IMG/VR virus record: IMGVR_UViG_2974693523_000001
Span: 1 to 38,802 of that record
Length of the DNA stretch: 38,802 nt
Reading direction: 5' to 3' (one strand)
From: a virus
Lineage: Duplodnaviria > Heunggongvirae > Uroviricota > Caudoviricetes > Ackermannviridae
In this document: piece by piece, positions 11,073 to 36,165 of the stretch
Numbering within the stretch: the first letter of the stretch is position 1
Layout of the letters: each line of letters opens with the position of its first letter
Notes under the pieces: generated by a model
Database searches by the model: none
What the model was told of the DNA's origin: nothing
What the model saw: only the letters and a program-made list of their open reading frames with translations
Program-made: the position numbers and the translations under genes

Positions 11073-11081
11073 ATAAGTGTT

Positions 11082-11110
11082 AAAAAGGGGGCTAGTTGTT
11101 AGCCCCTTTT
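11082..11110 (+). terminator. Rho-independent terminator
   Basis: AAAAAGGGGGCTA-gttgt-TAGCCCCTTTT downstream of groES. Confidence 0.7.
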
Positions 11111-11127
11111 GTTTTAAGGAAATTATC

Positions 11128-11964
11128 ATGACTATGTCTACTGAATACTTTAAAAAAATTGAACAGAATAACGCAAATGAATTCATCTCGATTGCCAACA
11201 AAGTTGGTATGTTGAATAACATGTTTGGTAATCAGCGTGTTTATTTATCAGATATGGATTACAGTGATCCAGACCAAATTAACATTGATATGATGAAACC
11301 TGTTTGGAAACAAAGAAAATTAATTGTTGAAGAAACTGAAGAAATTGTAAAAGCTTTTGAAAAACTTGATCACAAAAACATCTTAGACGGTATTGGTGAC
11401 TTCATAACAGTTTACTATGGTGAGCATTATATAAATGCAGAAACCGACGCCACCGTTTACACAGTCCCCACAGCATTACTGAATCAAGATGGTCCAGTTG
11501 ATGATTGGTGTGCAATGCTTAAAATTGCTAATAATAGACTAAAAAGATTTATTGAAGTTAACGAAAAATATGTTCCTGATAGTGGGGTACTTTTTGATTG
11601 TGAAGCTTCATTAAACAGATTATTCCGTATTTTCTTAGGTTTTACAGAAGAATATTTGAAAAAATATTACATCCATGCAATCAGTATTGAAGAAATTTAT
11701 GATTGTGTGCATAAGTCAAACATGACTAAATTTTTTAAACCTGAACAACAACAACAGACAGTTCAATTTTATGAAGATAAAGGTTACCCTATTGAAAAAC
11801 TTGGTGTGACTAATGTTGCTAATGGTTTGTTAAAAATCTATGTAACAAAAAGCTTTGATATGGGTGATAAACACTTTCCAGAAGGTAAATTCTTAAAAGG
11901 TATTGGTTTCACTGAACCTGATTTTGAAGGTGTGCTGGCATTACTCAAAAGCATCAATAACTAA
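11128..11964 (+). CDS. MazG/PRA-PH-like all-alpha nucleoside triphosphate pyrophosphohydrolase
   Basis: LIVEETEEI...ILDGIGDFITVYYG, VHKSNMTK and GKFLKG..F.EPD are PRA-PH/MazG-like motifs. Start at ATG 11128 after AAGGA. Confidence 0.75.
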   Translation: MTMSTEYFKKIEQNNANEFISIANKVGMLNNMFGNQRVYLSDMDYSDPDQINIDMMKPVWKQRKLIVEETEEIVKAFEKLDHKNILDGIGDFITVYYGEHYINAETDATVYTVPTALLNQDGPVDDWCAMLKIANNRLKRFIEVNEKYVPDSGVLFDCEASLNRLFRIFLGFTEEYLKKYYIHAISIEEIYDCVHKSNMTKFFKPEQQQQTVQFYEDKGYPIEKLGVTNVANGLLKIYVTKSFDMGDKHFPEGKFLKGIGFTEPDFEGVLALLKSINN

Positions 11965-11967: not shown

Positions 11968-12027
11968 CATACAACTATGACCATGGCGCGGTTATTACTG
12001 CGCCTTTTTATTTTAGAGGGTTTTAAA

Positions 12028-12489
12028 ATGGGTGTTTTTTCTAGTATATCTGATTTCAATACTATCATAAATGGGCTCTATATTCCCGGTGGTAACTTGG
12101 CAATTAGTAGATCTCAAATGCCACAAATTGACGATCAGGAGCATTTTAAAAACGTTTTAAAATTAAAAGGTGTATCTTTTGAAATTGTTGATGTTAATTC
12201 AACCGAACTTAGATTAACACAAAATGAAGTAGATAAATGGAAAGTTTTTAAAATGATGAGGGAAATAAGAAGAAAGGGTGTAGGGGCTTTTGACCCAGTT
12301 GTAAGTGGTAATGACAAATATGTGCTTGATGGTTCACATCGCTTTCTTGCGCGTCTTAATTTGTCAAGAAGATCTAAAGTTAAGACCCTAAAAGTTGATA
12401 TGAAAACACAAGATTTAATAGAACTAATCAACAACAATTGGGGTGATTTTAAATTAAAGCGCCGTAATTTATTAGGAAAACACTTGTGA
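12028..12489 (+). CDS. ParB/Sulfiredoxin-like domain protein
   Basis: RSQMPQID...L.LTQ.E....KV...PVVSGNDKYVLDGSHRFLA carries the ParB-N DGxHR signature. Start probably ATG 12028 after GAGG (alternative 11977). Confidence 0.7.
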   Translation: MGVFSSISDFNTIINGLYIPGGNLAISRSQMPQIDDQEHFKNVLKLKGVSFEIVDVNSTELRLTQNEVDKWKVFKMMREIRRKGVGAFDPVVSGNDKYVLDGSHRFLARLNLSRRSKVKTLKVDMKTQDLIELINNNWGDFKLKRRNLLGKHL

Positions 12490-29764: not shown

Positions 29765-29803
29765 ATAATAAAATGAAAAAGAGGCTTTTACAAGCCTCTT
29801 TCT
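29765..29803 (-). promoter_or_regulatory. Early promoter embedded in a stem-loop (PeSL-like)
   Basis: Minus strand AAAGAGGC-TTGTAAAA-GCCTCTTTTT; -35 TTGTAA (29793-29788), 17 bp spacer, -10 TATTAT (29770-29765). Same architecture as cassettes A and B. Confidence 0.7.
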
Positions 29804-29817
29804 TAATTAAGTTTTGA

Positions 29818-30186
29818 TTAACTTAGACTCATTTGCATCTTTTTGAAGCGATCTTCCACTTGCTCAGCGTACTGCTCCAACAAATCAAATGATGGTTTAT
29901 CACCTAATGTGACAGTAGGCTTCATTTTGTAATAGATCGGACGTAACGCTGGGAATCGAGTCATTAAATCTTGTGTGTTTTGTGCAGTTGTCATAATACG
30001 TGACATAATAGCAACAAGAATTTTTGATCCGGTTGGCAACTTTTCAAAAGTTGACATCTCAGGCTCTTGTGGTTTAACCTTAAATTGACGCTGTTCGCGC
30101 TGAACATACGTTTTGCGTGGTTGATAGCTATCAACCATATCTGATTCAAATTGACGTTCTTTGTTACGGCGTTGACTATGATGCAT
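29818..30186 (-). CDS. Hypothetical protein
   Basis: 122 aa from ATG 30186 with an AAGGT RBS; basic, Q/R-rich N-terminus. Confidence 0.65.
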   Translation of the reverse strand: MHHSQRRNKERQFESDMVDSYQPRKTYVQREQRQFKVKPQEPEMSTFEKLPTGSKILVAIMSRIMTTAQNTQDLMTRFPALRPIYYKMKPTVTLGDKPSFDLLEQYAEQVEDRFKKMQMSLS

Positions 30187-30234
30187 TTTGTTACCTTTCA
30201 AAGTTTATGGACCTAACAGTTACTTGATAGGTCC

Positions 30235-30263: not shown

Positions 30264-31604
30264 CTACTTTTTCAAAAAATTTTCTTCAAGGTAGCTTCTA
30301 CAATCTTTTTCAAGTTCTTCTGGTACTTCAATCATTTCCATACCATAATCATCATTTGATTCACTACCATGCATAAACTCAAACTCAGGTTTATATTTGA
30401 GTTCTTGTGTAAAACCCGTATAGTCAACATGATGATGCCACCTATTGTACTTCCAAAGCACTTTAGAAACGTCTGGATGCAGTCTCTCTAGCATTTCAGA
30501 CTTAGGAAGTGTTCCATTAGGCTTATACAGATCATCGGTGTTACCACCTTTCACCGTCTGTGTACATGCTTTATCTGCAAGGAATGTATTGATTAAAGTT
30601 GTACACCATCCAGCTTTAAGAACATCCAAACTTAGAATGGTATCTTCATTATAACGACCACGCCAACGGAATGGTAAATCATTACGAATAAGAAGATATG
30701 AATAGATTCTAGTGTTTTGAATATATGGTGAATTTGCACTAGATGGTGCCCTAAAGAAATAATAGTTCAACCCAGCCATACCAATATTTTCATATCTATT
30801 AACCCAATCCTCAATAGCTCTTAAGAAAGCACCTGTCTTGAGTTTATAGCGCGCATTATTCTTTAACCAAAAGAAACCACGTATGGTATTATCATCAAAT
30901 AACCAATGCCATTTGGCACCAAGTGCAATTGAATGATCCCAACAAAAATTACGAGCACCGCCAGAACCTTTAGGAATAGTGTTTCCTAGTTCATCACAAG
31001 CGTCATAATTTTCTTTATAAGTCATATCAAGTTGAATTATTGTTGCAAATTCCGTTTCAACTCTTTCCTTGTAAAGTTGATATTCGGTTGGTTCAACAAC
31101 AACGTAATGATAAACTTCCATATCACTTAAATGTTTAGACGTACCACAACAATCACTACGACCTTTACTAATCACATATACAGGACATTCACCTTGACGT
31201 GGACCACCTACTATCCTGTTTAGACGTATCATGTTATCCTTATAAGGGTATCTGTACATATTTCTATTTTTAGTGAGATTTTGTTCTATCAGATTAGAAA
31301 AATCATCAAGTGAATACTTTGTATCATCAAAATCAATGTAGATTGTAGTAAACGATGGTTCCTCACCATATGTATGCTCAGGCATATTAGACCAGAAAGG
31401 TTTTCTTTGTTCTGCTATTGAAAGTTCTGGATCTTTAGGTGTAATAAACGTGAATACAGGCTTACCTTTTTTGGGATAAGTGTCAATTTTTAAAGATGGT
31501 ATGTAGATTGTTTTGATATGGGGGTTAAACTTAACCCCCAATTTATCACAAAGTTTAATAAGACCTTGTTCGTCTTTTACCTTAATTTCAAATCTATGCT
31601 TCAT
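30264..31604 (-). CDS. TAGT/GREB1-like GT-A glycosyltransferase, paralog 2 (putative DNA base glycosylation)
   Basis: PVYVISKGRS, VVVEPTEY, GSGGARNFCWDHS, WLFDDN (metal-binding DD), NTRIYS, WRGRYNEDT.LSL..LK.GWCT and KGGNT, plus an N-terminal W..MPE...domain. Confidence 0.75.
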   Translation of the reverse strand: MKHRFEIKVKDEQGLIKLCDKLGVKFNPHIKTIYIPSLKIDTYPKKGKPVFTFITPKDPELSIAEQRKPFWSNMPEHTYGEEPSFTTIYIDFDDTKYSLDDFSNLIEQNLTKNRNMYRYPYKDNMIRLNRIVGGPRQGECPVYVISKGRSDCCGTSKHLSDMEVYHYVVVEPTEYQLYKERVETEFATIIQLDMTYKENYDACDELGNTIPKGSGGARNFCWDHSIALGAKWHWLFDDNTIRGFFWLKNNARYKLKTGAFLRAIEDWVNRYENIGMAGLNYYFFRAPSSANSPYIQNTRIYSYLLIRNDLPFRWRGRYNEDTILSLDVLKAGWCTTLINTFLADKACTQTVKGGNTDDLYKPNGTLPKSEMLERLHPDVSKVLWKYNRWHHHVDYTGFTQELKYKPEFEFMHGSESNDDYGMEMIEVPEELEKDCRSYLEENFLKK

Positions 31605-32952
31605 TTTTCTTTCCTAAGTATTTTTCTTCTAGGTAAGATCTTGAATCAGTATTTTCTGTTTCTTCTGTGTTTATGATAACCATACCATAATTATCAAGAT
31701 CGTCTTTACCGTGCAAGTGTTCAAATTCAGGTTTGTATTTTAATTCATTCTTAAACACTGAATAATCAACAATATGATGCCAGCGATTAAAACGCCATTT
31801 AACTTCTGAAACGTCTGGATGTAATCGCACTAACATCTCCGATTTAGGGAGTGTGCCATTAGGTTTATACAGATCGTCAGTGTTACCACCTTTTACTGTT
31901 TGTGTCGCTGCCTTACCCGCTAGAAACGTGTTAAATTGTACTGTACACCACCCAGCTTTAAGAACATCCAAACTTAGAATGGTATCTTCATTATAACGAC
32001 CGCGCCAACGGAATGGGATGTCATTGCGTATGAGCAAATATGAATAAATGCGGGTATTTGGTGTGTATGGTGGTGCAGCTTGACCAGCTACACGGAAACA
32101 AGCATAATGCAAACCAGCAATTCCAATATTTTCATAACGAAGAACCCAATCTTCCAAAGCCTTGAAAAATGCGCCAGTTCTCACCTTGTATTTAAAGTGG
32201 TTCAAACGCCAGAAAAATCCCGTGGTTGTATTGTCATCCATTAGCCAATGCCAAGCATATCCATTTTTAATTGAATGATCCCAACAGAAATTACGAGCAC
32301 CGCCAGAACCTTTAGGGATACTATTCCCAAGATCGTCACAAGCGTCATAATTTTCTTTATAAGTCATGTCAAGTTGGATGATCGTGGCGTACTCACTTTG
32401 GACACGCTCAACATACAAATCATATTCTTGAGGCTCCACAACAACACTGTGATAGACTTCCATAAGAGTTAAGAATTTAGAAGTAGCGCAGCAATCACTA
32501 CGACCTTTACTAATCACATAAATTGGGAATTGTCCTTGGCGTGGACCACCTACAACGCGATAGGAGCTAATATCACGGTCGACAGTTGGGTAACGATAAG
32601 TTACTACGCTATCTGTAACAGGTTGGTCTAGAAGCGATGAGAAGTAATCGTAATCATAATTCTTATCATCATATACGATCTCAATTTGAGTAAAATCAGG
32701 TTCCTCACCGTATGTATGCTCTGGCATCCCTGCCCAATGTAATTTGGTAGTTTTACTCAAAGTGAGTTTAGGACATGGCTTAAGAAAAGTCATTTTGGGT
32801 TGAGTTTTCTTAATTTGTTTATTCTCAACCTTGATACCTGAAGGTGATAAAAAAAGTTTATAAGACCATTCTGTCAACTTTACTTTAAAATGTTCAGATA
32901 ACACATCTAATGCAGCTTGGTCTTGAACTTTTACCCATATTGATTTTTTCAC
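31594..32952 (-). CDS. TAGT/GREB1-like GT-A glycosyltransferase, paralog 1 (putative DNA base glycosylation)
   Basis: Same motif set (PIYVISKGRS, GSGGARNFCW, WLMDDN, WRGRYNEDT, KGGNT). Start placed at GTG 32952 after GGGGA so that it aligns with the paralog; ATG 32976 is an alternative. Confidence 0.75.
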   Translation of the reverse strand: MKKSIWVKVQDQAALDVLSEHFKVKLTEWSYKLFLSPSGIKVENKQIKKTQPKMTFLKPCPKLTLSKTTKLHWAGMPEHTYGEEPDFTQIEIVYDDKNYDYDYFSSLLDQPVTDSVVTYRYPTVDRDISSYRVVGGPRQGQFPIYVISKGRSDCCATSKFLTLMEVYHSVVVEPQEYDLYVERVQSEYATIIQLDMTYKENYDACDDLGNSIPKGSGGARNFCWDHSIKNGYAWHWLMDDNTTTGFFWRLNHFKYKVRTGAFFKALEDWVLRYENIGIAGLHYACFRVAGQAAPPYTPNTRIYSYLLIRNDIPFRWRGRYNEDTILSLDVLKAGWCTVQFNTFLAGKAATQTVKGGNTDDLYKPNGTLPKSEMLVRLHPDVSEVKWRFNRWHHIVDYSVFKNELKYKPEFEHLHGKDDLDNYGMVIINTEETENTDSRSYLEEKYLGKKNEA

Positions 32953-33016
32953 TGTGATTCCCCACAAATAACCCATAATTACGGATCATATAGTAAGAAA
33001 ATTCAGTGATAAAATA

Positions 33017-33691
33017 TTAATAACCCTTCCAAGCAACACCTTTACCACCATTATGCCAACGTGCAACGTTCATTCCAATTACAATTTCCCATGTATCTGG
33101 ATGAACTTCTGCTAGTCGTGACATAACATGATCCGCGCGATAGGTCTTAACACAATGCTCAGCTAAAGGACCTTGATCTAAACTTTTAAGAATTTCCCAA
33201 GTCATTCTTAATCTTGTTTTTCTGCGAAGTGTTGAGTCATTTTTCAATTTAACAAGTGACATAAACAATCTTAGTCTATATTTTGGTGGTAAATAATGAA
33301 GATTAATACCACGCAAATAAAGAACACCTTTTTCACCAAATTTAACACCGTCACCTCTAAACGCACTAAAGAAAAAAGTTAACGGCCATTCATCCCATAC
33401 GGGTAATGTTTCTTTATGTTTGGCGTTATAACGAAATAAAAATAGACGACCTATGATACCTTTATCAGTTTCAACCCTACTCATAAAGGTTGCAAGTTCC
33501 CTATGAACAGTTTCAGACTTCAAATTAAAGTCTTTTGAAACCCTTCTCATGAACCATGCGTTTGAATCTTTATTATTGCGTTTCGCATTAGGACCTTTTA
33601 TGTCCCTATATTTTGCAATGTAACGCTTGATTAACTCTGGGTAATCATACTCACGTTTATTCAATAATTCATTTGGAATAGGCTTAGCCAT
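33017..33691 (-). CDS. gp2: DNA end protector gp2
   Basis: GRLFLFRYNAKHKETLPVWDEWPL, GINLHYLPP..R and VKTYR..HV.S match T4 gp2. Start at ATG 33691 after AGGGGA. Confidence 0.92.
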   Translation of the reverse strand: MAKPIPNELLNKREYDYPELIKRYIAKYRDIKGPNAKRNNKDSNAWFMRRVSKDFNLKSETVHRELATFMSRVETDKGIIGRLFLFRYNAKHKETLPVWDEWPLTFFFSAFRGDGVKFGEKGVLYLRGINLHYLPPKYRLRLFMSLVKLKNDSTLRRKTRLRMTWEILKSLDQGPLAEHCVKTYRADHVMSRLAEVHPDTWEIVIGMNVARWHNGGKGVAWKGY

Positions 33692-33701
33692 TTGAAATCC
33701 C

Positions 33702-33730
33702 CTAAATATGATCATTCCAGTCCTATCTAG
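33702..33730. promoter_or_regulatory. Back-to-back late promoters: CTAAATA (+, 33702-33708) for gp54 and CTAGATA (-, 33730-33724) for gp2
   Basis: Each motif lies 33-34 nt upstream of its start codon in a 51 bp divergent gap. Confidence 0.55.
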
Positions 33731-33742
33731 TAAGAGGTTAAC

Positions 33743-34672
33743 ATGGACTTCCAAAAATTTGCTGCTCATGCTAGACGCCATGGGTTCATGTTTAATAACC
33801 GTTTTCTTGTGACTATACCATTACCAACAAAAGTTCAAGCAATGTTGGATGGTAACAACGTTGAAGAAGACGATATGGAACAACTATTCAAAAAAGGTTT
33901 TAGAATAGCAACCATTCTTACAGGTGGTAAAGCAACATCAGAGCGCGGTCTTCAAATAATGTGTTCAAGTGCCGAATTCCCGGGACTAAACATAGAAACG
34001 TCAAGTGGTATGCAAAACGGCCATAAGATAACTATTGCAACCGGTAGCTCTAAAGACAAAGCCTCTTTTTCATTTATGATCAGTGCTGACGCATACGAAA
34101 AGAAAATACTTGATGCATGGAGAGATTTCATTGTTGATAGAAGAAATAAAAAGGTTGCATACTATGATGATTACGTTGTTGATATAGAAGTATCAGCACT
34201 AGGCTTAGATGGTTATCCAACATACACCGTAAGATATCTAGAAGCATGGCCTAGCACTTTTTCAAAACTAAATTTAGAAAAACGTGTTCAAACAATGCCT
34301 CAAACCTACTCACTATCATTCACATATAAGCGATTTGATGACGACACACAAGCTTCGACAAATAATTTCTTGCAGAATTCTAGTTTGTATAAGCTAGGTG
34401 AAGATCTAATGAAGGGTGATCTGGAGTCAGCAGCATATAGAGCGCGCGAGGTGATGCTTGATGTAAAGAATGGTACATTCTCAACTAAGCAGGCACAAGA
34501 CGCTTACAATGTGCTCTCTGACGCAATAAACGGTAGTATCGGTGTAGGTGCATCAGACATTGAGGGTATTATCTCAGGGTTCAAAGCTGATGTTATACCA
34601 AGCATAGCAAACTCAGTTGATAGACAAAGTTTATCAGAGCTGAGTGATAGATTAATAGATGGTTTTATCTAA
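33743..34672 (+). CDS. gp54: Baseplate tail-tube initiator gp54-like (tail-tube fold)
   Basis: NRFLVTIP, MCSSAEFPG, ILDAWRDFIVD, YYDDYVVDIEV, Y.EAWP and FTYK. Located beside gp2 and gp32. Confidence 0.75.
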   Translation: MDFQKFAAHARRHGFMFNNRFLVTIPLPTKVQAMLDGNNVEEDDMEQLFKKGFRIATILTGGKATSERGLQIMCSSAEFPGLNIETSSGMQNGHKITIATGSSKDKASFSFMISADAYEKKILDAWRDFIVDRRNKKVAYYDDYVVDIEVSALGLDGYPTYTVRYLEAWPSTFSKLNLEKRVQTMPQTYSLSFTYKRFDDDTQASTNNFLQNSSLYKLGEDLMKGDLESAAYRAREVMLDVKNGTFSTKQAQDAYNVLSDAINGSIGVGASDIEGIISGFKADVIPSIANSVDRQSLSELSDRLIDGFI

Positions 34673-34930: not shown

Positions 34931-35028
34931 TTTGGCTTTCCTTTAGTGTTTGCCTTAAGTTGAGTTAATAGTAAATTGAAAAATGGGCTGTTGCAAGCCC
35001 CTTTTGAAAAATATTTTGAATTATTTTA
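34928..35028 (-). repeat. Promoter/stem-loop regulatory cassette, copy B (PeSL-like)
   Basis: Reverse complement aligns to 19041-19143: TTGCAA-N17-TACTAT, the same hairpin and an identical 27 nt leader ending in ATG. Confidence 0.85.
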
Positions 35029-36165
35029 GTATGCAACCGCAACACCAGTCATAACCATACCAGTTTCTTTAAACTTTTCTGGTTGTCCGGTGATACCGTA
35101 TTTCAGTAGCACGTACCAATCTTCACTGTAGTATAGAATGTTAGTACCACCCATTGCGAATGATGCATTGCCGTACATATCAGAGGCAAATCCAAAGCCA
35201 AAGCTGTTGAAGTCAGTCTCAGGGATAGCGGCAAATGCAGCTACACCCGCAACTAAACCACGAATATTCTTAGCTTCTTGTTCAAGCCAATTGATCTTTT
35301 GTTCAGCTCCGTCCATGCGTAGTTCAAGTGCATCAATACGGAAGCCGTTAGCCGTGATACGATCGTTCATCACTTTGCCATCCATGCGCAGTTGATCCAA
35401 CTGCACAAACTGACCCGCATCAATAGCCGCTTGTGTGATTTCAAACTCTTTAAAGCGAATATCTTGTGCTTGATCACGCGCTACGCTTTCAGAATTAACT
35501 TGATTGATTTTGCTACCCAGAAACTCATCGCGATTCTTACTTTCGTTTTCCACGCGCTGGGTTTCTTTCTTAAGATCGGCGTTTACCACGGCTTGTTCTT
35601 TCTTTGCTTCGGTAATGCGTTCGTTAGTAGCAACCACGCGATCACTCACATCGTTGGTAAACTCACTAAGTTCATCAACGCGCTTGTTGACTGTGCTCAC
35701 TGTCTTACTAACTGCACCGAGATGAGCGTTCGTGGCATCAACACGCTTGTTAAGATCGGATACTGATTTTTTGTCAGCCTTACCGTTTTCAAGTGCAGTA
35801 ATTTTACTGTCTTGAATTTTGTCATGCGCAGCTGACTCTTCACGGGCAATGTTAATGCCTTCAAGTAGACGTTTGTCACTTTTATGGCGGATCTGGCCTT
35901 CTTCGGAGATGGTTTTTTCGTTAGCGTAAACACGCTCGCGCAATTCCGTATCATCGTATGCTTCGCCGTTGATAGTAACGTTGGCACCCGCATTGATAAC
36001 CACGTTGTCGGCTTTACCAATTGACACATCACAATCATTTGTGTAGCCGCTTTGGTTACATACGTGACCCATAATAACCGCGTTATCAATGTTTGATTGT
36101 GCCCCTAACGTAGCCGCAGAAACAGCACAAAGTGAAAGAACTAAAATATTTTGTTTGCTTTTCAT
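35026..36165 (-). CDS. YadA-like trimeric autotransporter (signal peptide, coiled-coil stalk, C-terminal membrane anchor)
   Basis: N-terminal signal-like MKSKQNILVLSLCAVSAATLGAQS, stalk heptads (LNKRVD, VNKRVD, TNERIT), linker GLVAGVAAFAAIP and four amphipathic beta-strands ending in the aromatic residue of GVAVAY. Confidence 0.8.
   Translation of the reverse strand: MKSKQNILVLSLCAVSAATLGAQSNIDNAVIMGHVCNQSGYTNDCDVSIGKADNVVINAGANVTINGEAYDDTELRERVYANEKTISEEGQIRHKSDKRLLEGINIAREESAAHDKIQDSKITALENGKADKKSVSDLNKRVDATNAHLGAVSKTVSTVNKRVDELSEFTNDVSDRVVATNERITEAKKEQAVVNADLKKETQRVENESKNRDEFLGSKINQVNSESVARDQAQDIRFKEFEITQAAIDAGQFVQLDQLRMDGKVMNDRITANGFRIDALELRMDGAEQKINWLEQEAKNIRGLVAGVAAFAAIPETDFNSFGFGFASDMYGNASFAMGGTNILYYSEDWYVLLKYGITGQPEKFKETGMVMTGVAVAY

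Follow-up and report, generated by a model that had tools for sequence, protein, structure and literature searches.

Among the described systems closest to the locus treated here, the β-glucosyl-hydroxymethylcytosine-α-glucosyltransferase of phage T6 attaches the second of two sugars to DNA (PMC13390438), pairs of glycosyltransferases (GTs) that act in sequence (metavirome subclass I) glycosylate DNA, and phage JGT-like enzymes of the GT-A type likewise act on DNA (bioRxiv 10.1101/2023.12.21.572611). In phage ViI, a member of the Ackermannviridae, the hypermodified nucleoside 5-(2-aminoethoxy)methyl-2'-deoxyuridine (5-NeOmdU) is made by dU-hmt, 5-HMUDK, the aGPT-PPlases and a pyridoxal phosphate (PLP) enzyme (PMC5889632), and a recent review describes thymidine hypermodification genes as conserved across this virus family. 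Enzymes of the TET-associated glycosyltransferase (TAGT) type are understood to carry out a second step that needs 5-hydroxymethylcytosine (5hmC) or 5-hydroxymethyluracil (5hmU), yet a large TAGT clade resides in phages with no detectable route to either base, and the searchable literature is silent on this mismatch. Here we describe two tandem TAGT genes, TAGT-A (upstream) and TAGT-B (downstream), on the minus strand of a 38,802-nucleotide stretch of viral DNA, hereafter the window, which covers the opening 38.8 kb of a virus record that is 148,180 bp long and rated as complete (IMGVR_UViG_2974693523_000001); minus-strand coordinates are counted on the window. The pair represents, within the abundant TAGT clade, a variant with a fused adaptor and a tandem duplication, and our tentative best explanation is that it comprises two non-redundant, catalytically competent, DNA-directed enzymes whose acceptor is not made by a known route.

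The two proteins (460 and 446 aa) are identical at 284 of 449 positions (63%; BLASTP E = 0), and their genes overlap by 11 nt, in agreement with a first-pass annotation of this DNA, made from the sequence alone, that had reported two coupled paralogues of about 450 aa in tandem. Both match the Pfam TAGT family PF20691 (E 1.5e-33 for TAGT-A and 3.6e-31 for TAGT-B), with scores of 116.9 and 109.2 bits against a gathering cut-off of 27.5 bits and with coverage of model positions 1-205 and 2-205, respectively. A six-frame search confirmed these matches, and both copies also match phrog_842. The AlphaFold model of TAGT-A, built from a 64-sequence alignment (predicted local distance difference test score, pLDDT, 89; predicted template modelling score, pTM, 0.86), has a GT-A fold at residues ~140-400. 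Comparison of this model by VIA-align gave Z scores of 11-12.6 to BcsA (cellulose synthase), GalNAc-T, GnT-I and SpsA, and Foldseek returned GT-A enzymes only, whereas no solved structure in the PDB proved to be a sequence relative of the TAGT proteins. The family and fold thus bear out the earlier assignment of both proteins to the TAGT/GREB1-like GT-A family.

In phage JGT-like GT-A enzymes, the motifs R...DDD...EDY/F are marked as catalytic (Pyle et al., bioRxiv 10.1101/2023.12.21.572611). The clade that holds TAGT-A and TAGT-B has DDN and EDT in place of DDD and EDY/F, and the residues concerned (R220, D239-D240-N241 and E322-D323-T324) are invariant in 64 of 64 aligned homologues, both copies included. 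The strings quoted in the first-pass annotation, WAGMPEHTYGEEP and WSNMPEHTYGEEP together with GLHYACFRVAGQAAPPY and GLNYYFFRAPSSANSPY, are present. As that annotation also stated, the copies have their core motifs in common and diverge in the segment that follows the DD motif. This segment is a local low in core identity, with 9 of 20 residues identical, where most core windows close by have 15-19.

In a maximum-likelihood tree, TAGT-A and TAGT-B are sisters (SH-aLRT 100; stem 0.74; branches 0.33 for A and 0.56 for B), and they share many derived residues at positions that are conserved in the rest of the family. Their synonymous sites are saturated (proportion of synonymous differences, pS, 0.71), and the core has a nonsynonymous distance (dN) of 0.18 and an omega (dN/dS) of about 0.1. 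These values indicate that the pair is an old tandem duplication within this lineage, with both copies kept under purifying selection. No direct tandem TAGT pair was present at any of 80 IMG/VR loci that carry close TAGT relatives, although two of these loci have two more distant TAGT genes spaced 7-9 kb apart.

Each copy departs from the family at near-invariant columns in its own manner, TAGT-A by N252H and N282H and TAGT-B by K254R, R258K, F263L, P294S, Q339L, F340I and G346D. It might be argued from such changes that one copy is active while the other is degenerating, or serves a purely regulatory or structural role: TAGT-A has His at two positions where Asn is 98-100% conserved, and TAGT-B lies on the longer branch with more changes at conserved columns. 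We regard this alternative as highly improbable, because both copies are full length without stops, every invariant residue of the catalytic motifs is kept in each, and the low core omega at saturated synonymous sites implies that both have long been maintained. The part of a GT-A enzyme that follows its DXD motif towards the C-terminus is usually what gives the acceptor site its shape. The low identity after the DDN motif makes it a reasonable reading, among others, that the paralogues differ in acceptor, for example by placing a first versus a second sugar. A division of labour between the copies, as originally proposed, therefore remains plausible to the extent that both are intact, constrained and distinct, but the premise that they work on a hydroxymethyl-pyrimidine does not carry over, as described below.

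The N-terminal regions of the two proteins, in which the first-pass annotation had noted a W..MPEHTYGEEP domain, contain two small beta-alpha-beta(-beta) units that we call N1 and N2, ahead of the GT-A core. Clues to their origin come from the 80 related loci, most of which carry a short TAGT open reading frame (ORF) of about 295-310 aa with an overlapping ORF of about 206-240 aa just upstream, and these two-gene cassettes are followed directly by terS, terL and portal genes. A ParB_N domain is present in 6 of 7 upstream partner ORFs tested, and the partners end in a C-terminal segment of ~70 aa with the pattern 'EW.GMPEF...VHF...F...IGQ..T.KTK.IWYP'. When an alignment of this segment was compared with an alignment of the long TAGT proteins, hhalign joined them at about residues 62-133 with a probability of 98.3% and an E value of 2e-14. 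On this homology, N2 is the C-terminal domain of the ParB-like TAGT partner, joined here to the enzyme itself, and it does not represent a new catalytic module. The domain noted earlier is thus present, but it is a fused adaptor domain and not a separate novel module.

ParB_N itself gave no Pfam match in the first 140 aa of either TAGT copy, and N1 occupies its place. Since N1 resembles N2 (hhalign probability 68%, E 5e-5), N1 may be a repeat of the small domain of N2. Folded alone (pLDDT 84), the N1-N2 module could not be assigned a fold, with a best Z score of 3.1, a loose likeness to ferredoxin/ACT-like domains and Foldseek E values above 2. A phmmer search of the module against 1.8 billion representative sequences gave two weak matches only, and no ESM Atlas entry came out above 0.83. 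ParB-like proteins serve as activators of some thymine dioxygenases of phages, and proteins of the ParB_N type have been recruited to phage DNA modification (PMC13229309). At some loci of small phages (L019, at 1692-2561, L021, L023, L044 and L060), a further ORF separates the gene for the ParB-like adaptor from that for the TAGT. This ORF was considered as an oxidase candidate and was set aside, as it carries LDLGCGFG, a sequence motif like that of class I S-adenosylmethionine (SAM)-dependent methyltransferases.

The fused long form is common in other phages, and is found in Aeromonas phage Aeh1, Pectobacterium phage POP12, Tenacibaculum phage PTm1 and Paraglaciecola GD virus 1, as well as in many metagenomic proteins. 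No gp42 homologue was found in Aeh1, POP12, henriette 12B8 or 1.124.O, and where thymidylate synthase (TS) is present in these four phages and GD virus 1, it is canonical. PTm1, whose long-form TAGT is 54% identical to that of the present phage, encodes an extra TS homologue (NC_049340, about 123231-123866, with one TAA stop within the match) that carries L143E, D169N and N177D. This pattern is the signature of 5-hydroxy-dCMP synthases (PMC13326640), and from it PTm1 DNA may be predicted to carry glycosylated 5-hydroxycytosine.

The record that contains the pair has a T4-type replication core and a baseplate nearest to that of Vibrio phage VPALA (43%), followed by those of the Ackermannviridae VAP7, BX-1 and VP-1 (35%), which is consistent with the Ackermann-like backbone suggested at first. 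We searched the whole 148-kb genome by tblastn with the five ViI 5-NeOmdU genes and the dUMP hydroxymethylase (mapped by orf number in NC_015296) and with T4 gp42, gp56 and β-GT. At E values up to 0.01, there was no match to T4 gp42, β-GT, ViI dU-hmt, 5-HMUDK, aGPT-PPlase 1 or 2, or the PLP enzyme. Only four queries gave matches, namely gp2 (50%), the deoxynucleoside kinase, the MazG-like protein and, marginally, a second kinase; this last match, to ViI kinase 2, is a 44-residue P-loop that falls on the dnk gene. The genome also gave no match to TET/JBP (PF12851) even at E 0.1, to the PF13640 oxygenase family or to a C5-methyltransferase. Among 20 phage-specific ORFs searched against Pfam and 10 against PHROGs, neither an oxygenase nor a second GT was found, the only matches being to Dam, an AAA_33 kinase-like domain, an SPFH domain, an endonuclease-like ORF and DUF7440.

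The only TS-family gene (PF00303) of the phage has a product that matches best the Vibrio/Haemophilus-type ThyA model, is 62% identical to ThyA of N4-like Vibrio cholerae phages and has a hydrophobic C-terminus. It keeps R21, E58, W80, Y94, L143, C146, D169, N177, H207 and Y209, whereas the two alignments differ at W83, one giving W and one N. Positions 143, 169 and 177 are diagnostic within the TS family (PMC13326640), and in our alignments they are L/D/N in this phage, D/D/D in T4 gp42, D/D/N in ViI dU-hmt and E/N/D in the extra TS homologue of PTm1. Given the canonical L143/D169/N177, the phage is predicted to make ordinary thymidine monophosphate (dTMP). A dihydrofolate reductase gene was found nowhere in the genome, which is uninformative on TS function.

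The base-activating enzyme that the first-pass annotation found missing from the window is therefore undetected in the complete genome as well, and the hydroxymethylated pyrimidine that it had assumed as acceptor finds no support there. With every activating enzyme that we searched for undetected, the acceptor does not appear to be a hydroxymethyl-pyrimidine made by any known route. Two other genes were noted during these comparisons. A MazG-like pyrophosphohydrolase gene is kept beside regA, as is Vi01_131c in ViI (window 11077-11964 (+) and 11977-12489 (+)); the counterpart of ViI aGPT-PPlase1 (Vi01_130c) is absent beside it, and a 170-aa ORF (phrog_2859) is found there instead. An ORF of 353 aa at 84253-85314 (-) of the record has an N-terminal match to the AAA_33 P-loop kinase family, is unrelated by tblastn to the ViI 5-HMUDKs and is possibly a PseT-like polynucleotide kinase.

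Part of the earlier proposal was to look for sugar-nucleotide genes together with a hydroxymethylase and TET/JBP, and only the sugar genes were found. At 93.5-95.6 kb of the record, genes for a uridine diphosphate (UDP)-glucose 6-dehydrogenase, Ugd (TIGR03026, 291 bits), and a 284-aa extended short-chain dehydrogenase/reductase (SDR) are present. The SDR is given no name by NCBIfam and has the motifs GSSTAFGD and YSLSK, from which we take it to be epimerase-like, and not decarboxylase- or dehydratase-like. At one related IMG/VR locus (L014, 1817-8061), a single block contains genes for an exonuclease, a long TAGT, UGD (42% identical to that of this phage), an SDR (57% identical), two small ORFs and ThyX, and continues with a 228-aa ORF, dUTPase_2 and then DNA polymerase. 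This arrangement ties the sugar genes to TAGT, and both to a context of DNA metabolism and thymidylate synthesis. Directly downstream of the Ugd-SDR genes and on the same strand is an ORF of 251 aa (92770-93525 (-)) with a C-terminal DUF7440 match; only two homologues, both DUF7440 proteins, were found among 5.8 billion proteins, and this ORF could be part of the sugar pathway.

With these observations in mind, we infer that the most likely target of the pair is the phage's own DNA, after replication, and we likewise infer the order of action and the donors. The N1-N2 module would dock the enzyme on DNA or on the replication or packaging machinery, and the DDN motif would bind the metal-UDP-sugar donor. 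One paralogue would then place a first sugar on the acceptor, and the other would add a second sugar or take a different donor. At least one donor might be supplied by the phage Ugd and the epimerase-like SDR, as UDP-glucuronate or its 4-epimer. The position of the pair directly beside gp2, whose flank in ViI holds the hypermodification genes, counts for a DNA target. A bolder form of this explanation is that the pair, and the ParB-adaptor/TAGT cassettes with it, glycosylate a DNA acceptor that needs no phage-encoded pre-activation, such as a DNA end or, on a canonical base, an exocyclic amine or some other position. We judge this form unlikely; if true, it would amount to a new chemical class of DNA modification.

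Several points weigh against a DNA-directed pair whose acceptor arises by no known route. The overall isoelectric point (pI) of TAGT-A and TAGT-B is near neutral (6.5-6.7), unlike that of many DNA enzymes, and the T6 enzyme can barely be aligned with the pair (BLASTP E 0.17), with no significant result from hhalign when the single T6 sequence was used. Moreover, we know of no chemistry by which a sugar is placed on an unactivated DNA base. For about two-thirds of the phage ORFs, ViI has no homologue, and family searches with those tested were mostly without a match, so that a cryptic oxidase is conceivable; the Pfam TET/JBP model is reported to miss many divergent 5-methylpyrimidine dioxygenases (5mYOX enzymes) of phages (PMC13229309). 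Finally, GREB1, a eukaryotic relative of the TAGT enzymes, is reported to glycosylate protein, by addition of O-linked N-acetylglucosamine (PMC7968844).

The possibility of a cryptic oxidase leads to an alternative in which an enzyme of the phage, for example a divergent 5-methylpyrimidine dioxygenase, makes 5hmU by oxidation of DNA thymine, and one TAGT enzyme converts it to a base-J-like glycosyl-5hmU that the other extends to a disaccharide. All characterised enzymes of the TAGT/JGT type use a 5-hydroxymethyl-pyrimidine or a sugar already attached to one, the canonical TS that is kept by this phage implies that thymine is available in its DNA, and many of its enzyme-sized ORFs are unannotated. 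Phage thymine dioxygenases, many of which escape the Pfam model, also co-occur with GTs, ParB-like proteins and terminases (PMC13229309). However, in addition to the absence of PF12851 (at E 0.1), PF13640 and C5-methyltransferase matches from the phage genome, the related phages offer no sign of such an enzyme. When 1,433 ORFs from the 80 TAGT loci were compared with this genome, only replication genes and Ugd/SDR were found in common. None of 25 records that carry close relatives of the TAGT genes (13 of them at least 90% complete) matched either the TS family or TET/JBP, the TET/JBP search of these records being one without a positive control, which again weighs against our explanation. The genes beside the ParB-TAGT cassettes encode terminase, portal and replication initiator proteins and, at some loci, an apparent SAM-methyltransferase recognised by sequence motif only; none encodes an oxygenase. 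On balance, we consider a hidden oxidase doubtful.

A second alternative is that the pair does not act on DNA but on a virion, phage or host protein, a small molecule or a glycan, to which the adaptor domain recruits the enzyme. The near-neutral charge, the report on GREB1 and the lack of an available activated base all fit this view, as do an N-terminal module with no recognisable DNA-binding fold (best Z 3.1) and the location of the genes among virion genes (gp2 and tail tube). In contrast, the gene context in relatives is consistently DNA-centred, with ParB_N partners, terminase and replication or nucleotide-metabolism genes as neighbours, and the proteins are predicted to be soluble, with neither a signal peptide nor a membrane segment evident in the TAGT-A model. 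The only phage TAGT with known activity, furthermore, acts on DNA (PMC13390438). We therefore see a non-DNA target as rather unlikely, if deserving of serious attention, and continue to favour the explanation in which the pair is DNA-directed.

The coordinates of the pair and of its surroundings are listed in Table 1. The database form of TAGT-A is shorter, with 452 aa from a GTG at 32952 that coincides with the end coordinate given in the first-pass annotation and is preceded by GGGGA. The catalytic core of TAGT-B spans 30543-31184 (-). The TAGT-B ATG lies 11 nt inside the 3' end of TAGT-A, and AGGAAAG just ahead of it is Shine-Dalgarno-like, an arrangement that makes translational coupling from TAGT-A to TAGT-B plausible. 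Upstream, gp2 serves as a synteny anchor to ViI Vi01_065c and is separated from TAGT-A by a gap of 40 nt that contains a promoter candidate; sigma-70-like pattern matches here are no commoner than in shuffled sequence. Downstream, a basic ORF of 127 aa, unmatched in Pfam, PHROGs and NCBIfam, probably shares the transcript of the pair. The immediate neighbours of the pair are otherwise gp2 and the tail tube gene, and between the latter and gp32 is an ORF of 379 aa (35026-36165 (-)) with neither a ViI homologue nor a PHROG match. A megablast search of the TAGT locus against GenBank phages found no close DNA relative.

Table 1. Positions of the TAGT genes, their domains and surrounding features, counted on the window.
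Feature	Position	Strand	Description and basis
TAGT-A, upstream paralogue	31594..32976	-	460 aa from ATG 32976; ORF, PF20691, AlphaFold, GT-A fold
N1 of TAGT-A	32818..32952	-	Small beta-alpha-beta-beta unit, basic, pI about 9.4; secondary structure in both models
N2 of TAGT-A	32542..32760	-	W-x-GMPE adaptor-type domain; hhalign, BLASTP
Catalytic (GT-A) core of TAGT-A	31885..32529	-	R, DDN and EDT motifs, family-invariant
TAGT-B, downstream paralogue	30264..31604	-	446 aa; N1-N2-GT-A layout as in TAGT-A
Coupling junction	31594..31615	-	AGGAAAG 31615-31609, TAGT-B ATG 31604-31602, TAGT-A stop TAG 31596-31594; read from sequence
gp2-type DNA end protector	33017..33781	-	phrog_429 at 2.7e-51; 50% identity to ViI gp2; directly upstream of TAGT-A
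Sigma-70-like promoter candidate, TTATCA-16-TATGAT	32985..33012	-	In gp2/TAGT-A gap; consensus scan, pattern match only
Basic ORF, 127 aa, pI 9.8	29818..30201	-	Between TAGT-B and terminator-like hairpin
Terminator-like hairpin and T run	29776..29803	-	Closes the apparent TAGT-A/TAGT-B/127-aa ORF unit
TS-family gene (PF00303)	39138..40025	-	Outside the window, close to its end; the phage has no other TS-family gene

The phage is well suited to the question of how TAGT enzymes act where no route to 5hmC or 5hmU can be detected, as its adaptor is fused, its two copies are constrained and its donor-sugar genes are in the same genome. It would offer the further advantage of being a cultured lytic Vibrio phage if the label Kuja is right; a review places Kujavirus (MN718199) in the Ackermannviridae. 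Should the bolder form of the explanation, with an acceptor that needs no pre-activation, be true, an adduct of two sugars, possibly containing a uronic acid, would replace in this phage the aminoethoxymethyl-uracil that is usual for the family.

Among known systems, the T6 β-glucosyl-HMC-α-glucosyltransferase (T6 ggt, 261 aa) resembles the pair in its GT-A type, in its motif W-x-x-DD(D/N)-T-T and in its match to PF20691, which scores 35.8 bits for T6 and 109-117 bits here. It consists of the catalytic core only and lacks the N1-N2 module and the C-terminal extension of the pair. The T6 enzyme also works after gp42, which provides the hydroxymethylcytosine, and a GT-B α-GT; in the present genome, neither gp42 nor T4 β-GT found a tblastn match, and α-GT was not searched.

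ViI belongs to the same virus family, has the same gp2 flank and presumably serves the same purpose, protection of DNA from nucleases. Upstream of its gp2 and on the same strand are 064c, 063c, 062c, 5-HMUDK, dU-hmt, dnk and dUTPase, so that the flank that holds dU-hmt and 5-HMUDK in ViI holds the TAGT pair in this phage. The ViI pathway genes are unmatched here, and the TS homologue keeps L143 where ViI dU-hmt has L143D. Of the Vibrio relatives, 1.244.A and VPALA have a divergent TS homologue beside a 5-HMUDK homologue, while VAP7 has a canonical TS but neither the kinase nor a TAGT, which leaves this phage as the only one of these relatives with TAGT genes. The thymidine hypermodification pathway is thus not detectable in at least two lineages of Vibrio-infecting Ackermannviridae, represented by this phage and VAP7.

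The metavirome GT pairs and the arabinosyltransferases of RB69 and DLP3 (PMC13326640) are alike in that at least two GT genes yield a mono-, di- or trisaccharide on a DNA base, with the donor coming from phage-encoded sugar-nucleotide enzymes. There, the activated base is 5hmC, made by a C5-methyltransferase and a 5mYOX enzyme, or 5-hydroxycytosine (5hoC), made by a TS homologue with D169N, and the RB69 and DLP3 transferases best match other glycosyltransferase types, such as BshA and sucrose-phosphate synthase. The present phage differs from these sequential systems in having two sister TAGT paralogues and no detected activating enzyme. A further parallel is found in the ParB-adaptor and short-TAGT cassettes of small phages, whose catalytic domain is 50-56% identical to that of this phage, whose partner W-x-GMPE domain is homologous to N2 (here about residues 70-135), and whose tested genomes give no match to the TS family or TET/JBP. 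In those phages, the adaptor is a separate protein encoded beside terminase, whereas here it is fused to the enzyme, ParB_N is absent, and the gene is tandemly duplicated beside the gp2 and tail tube genes of a 148-kb myovirus.

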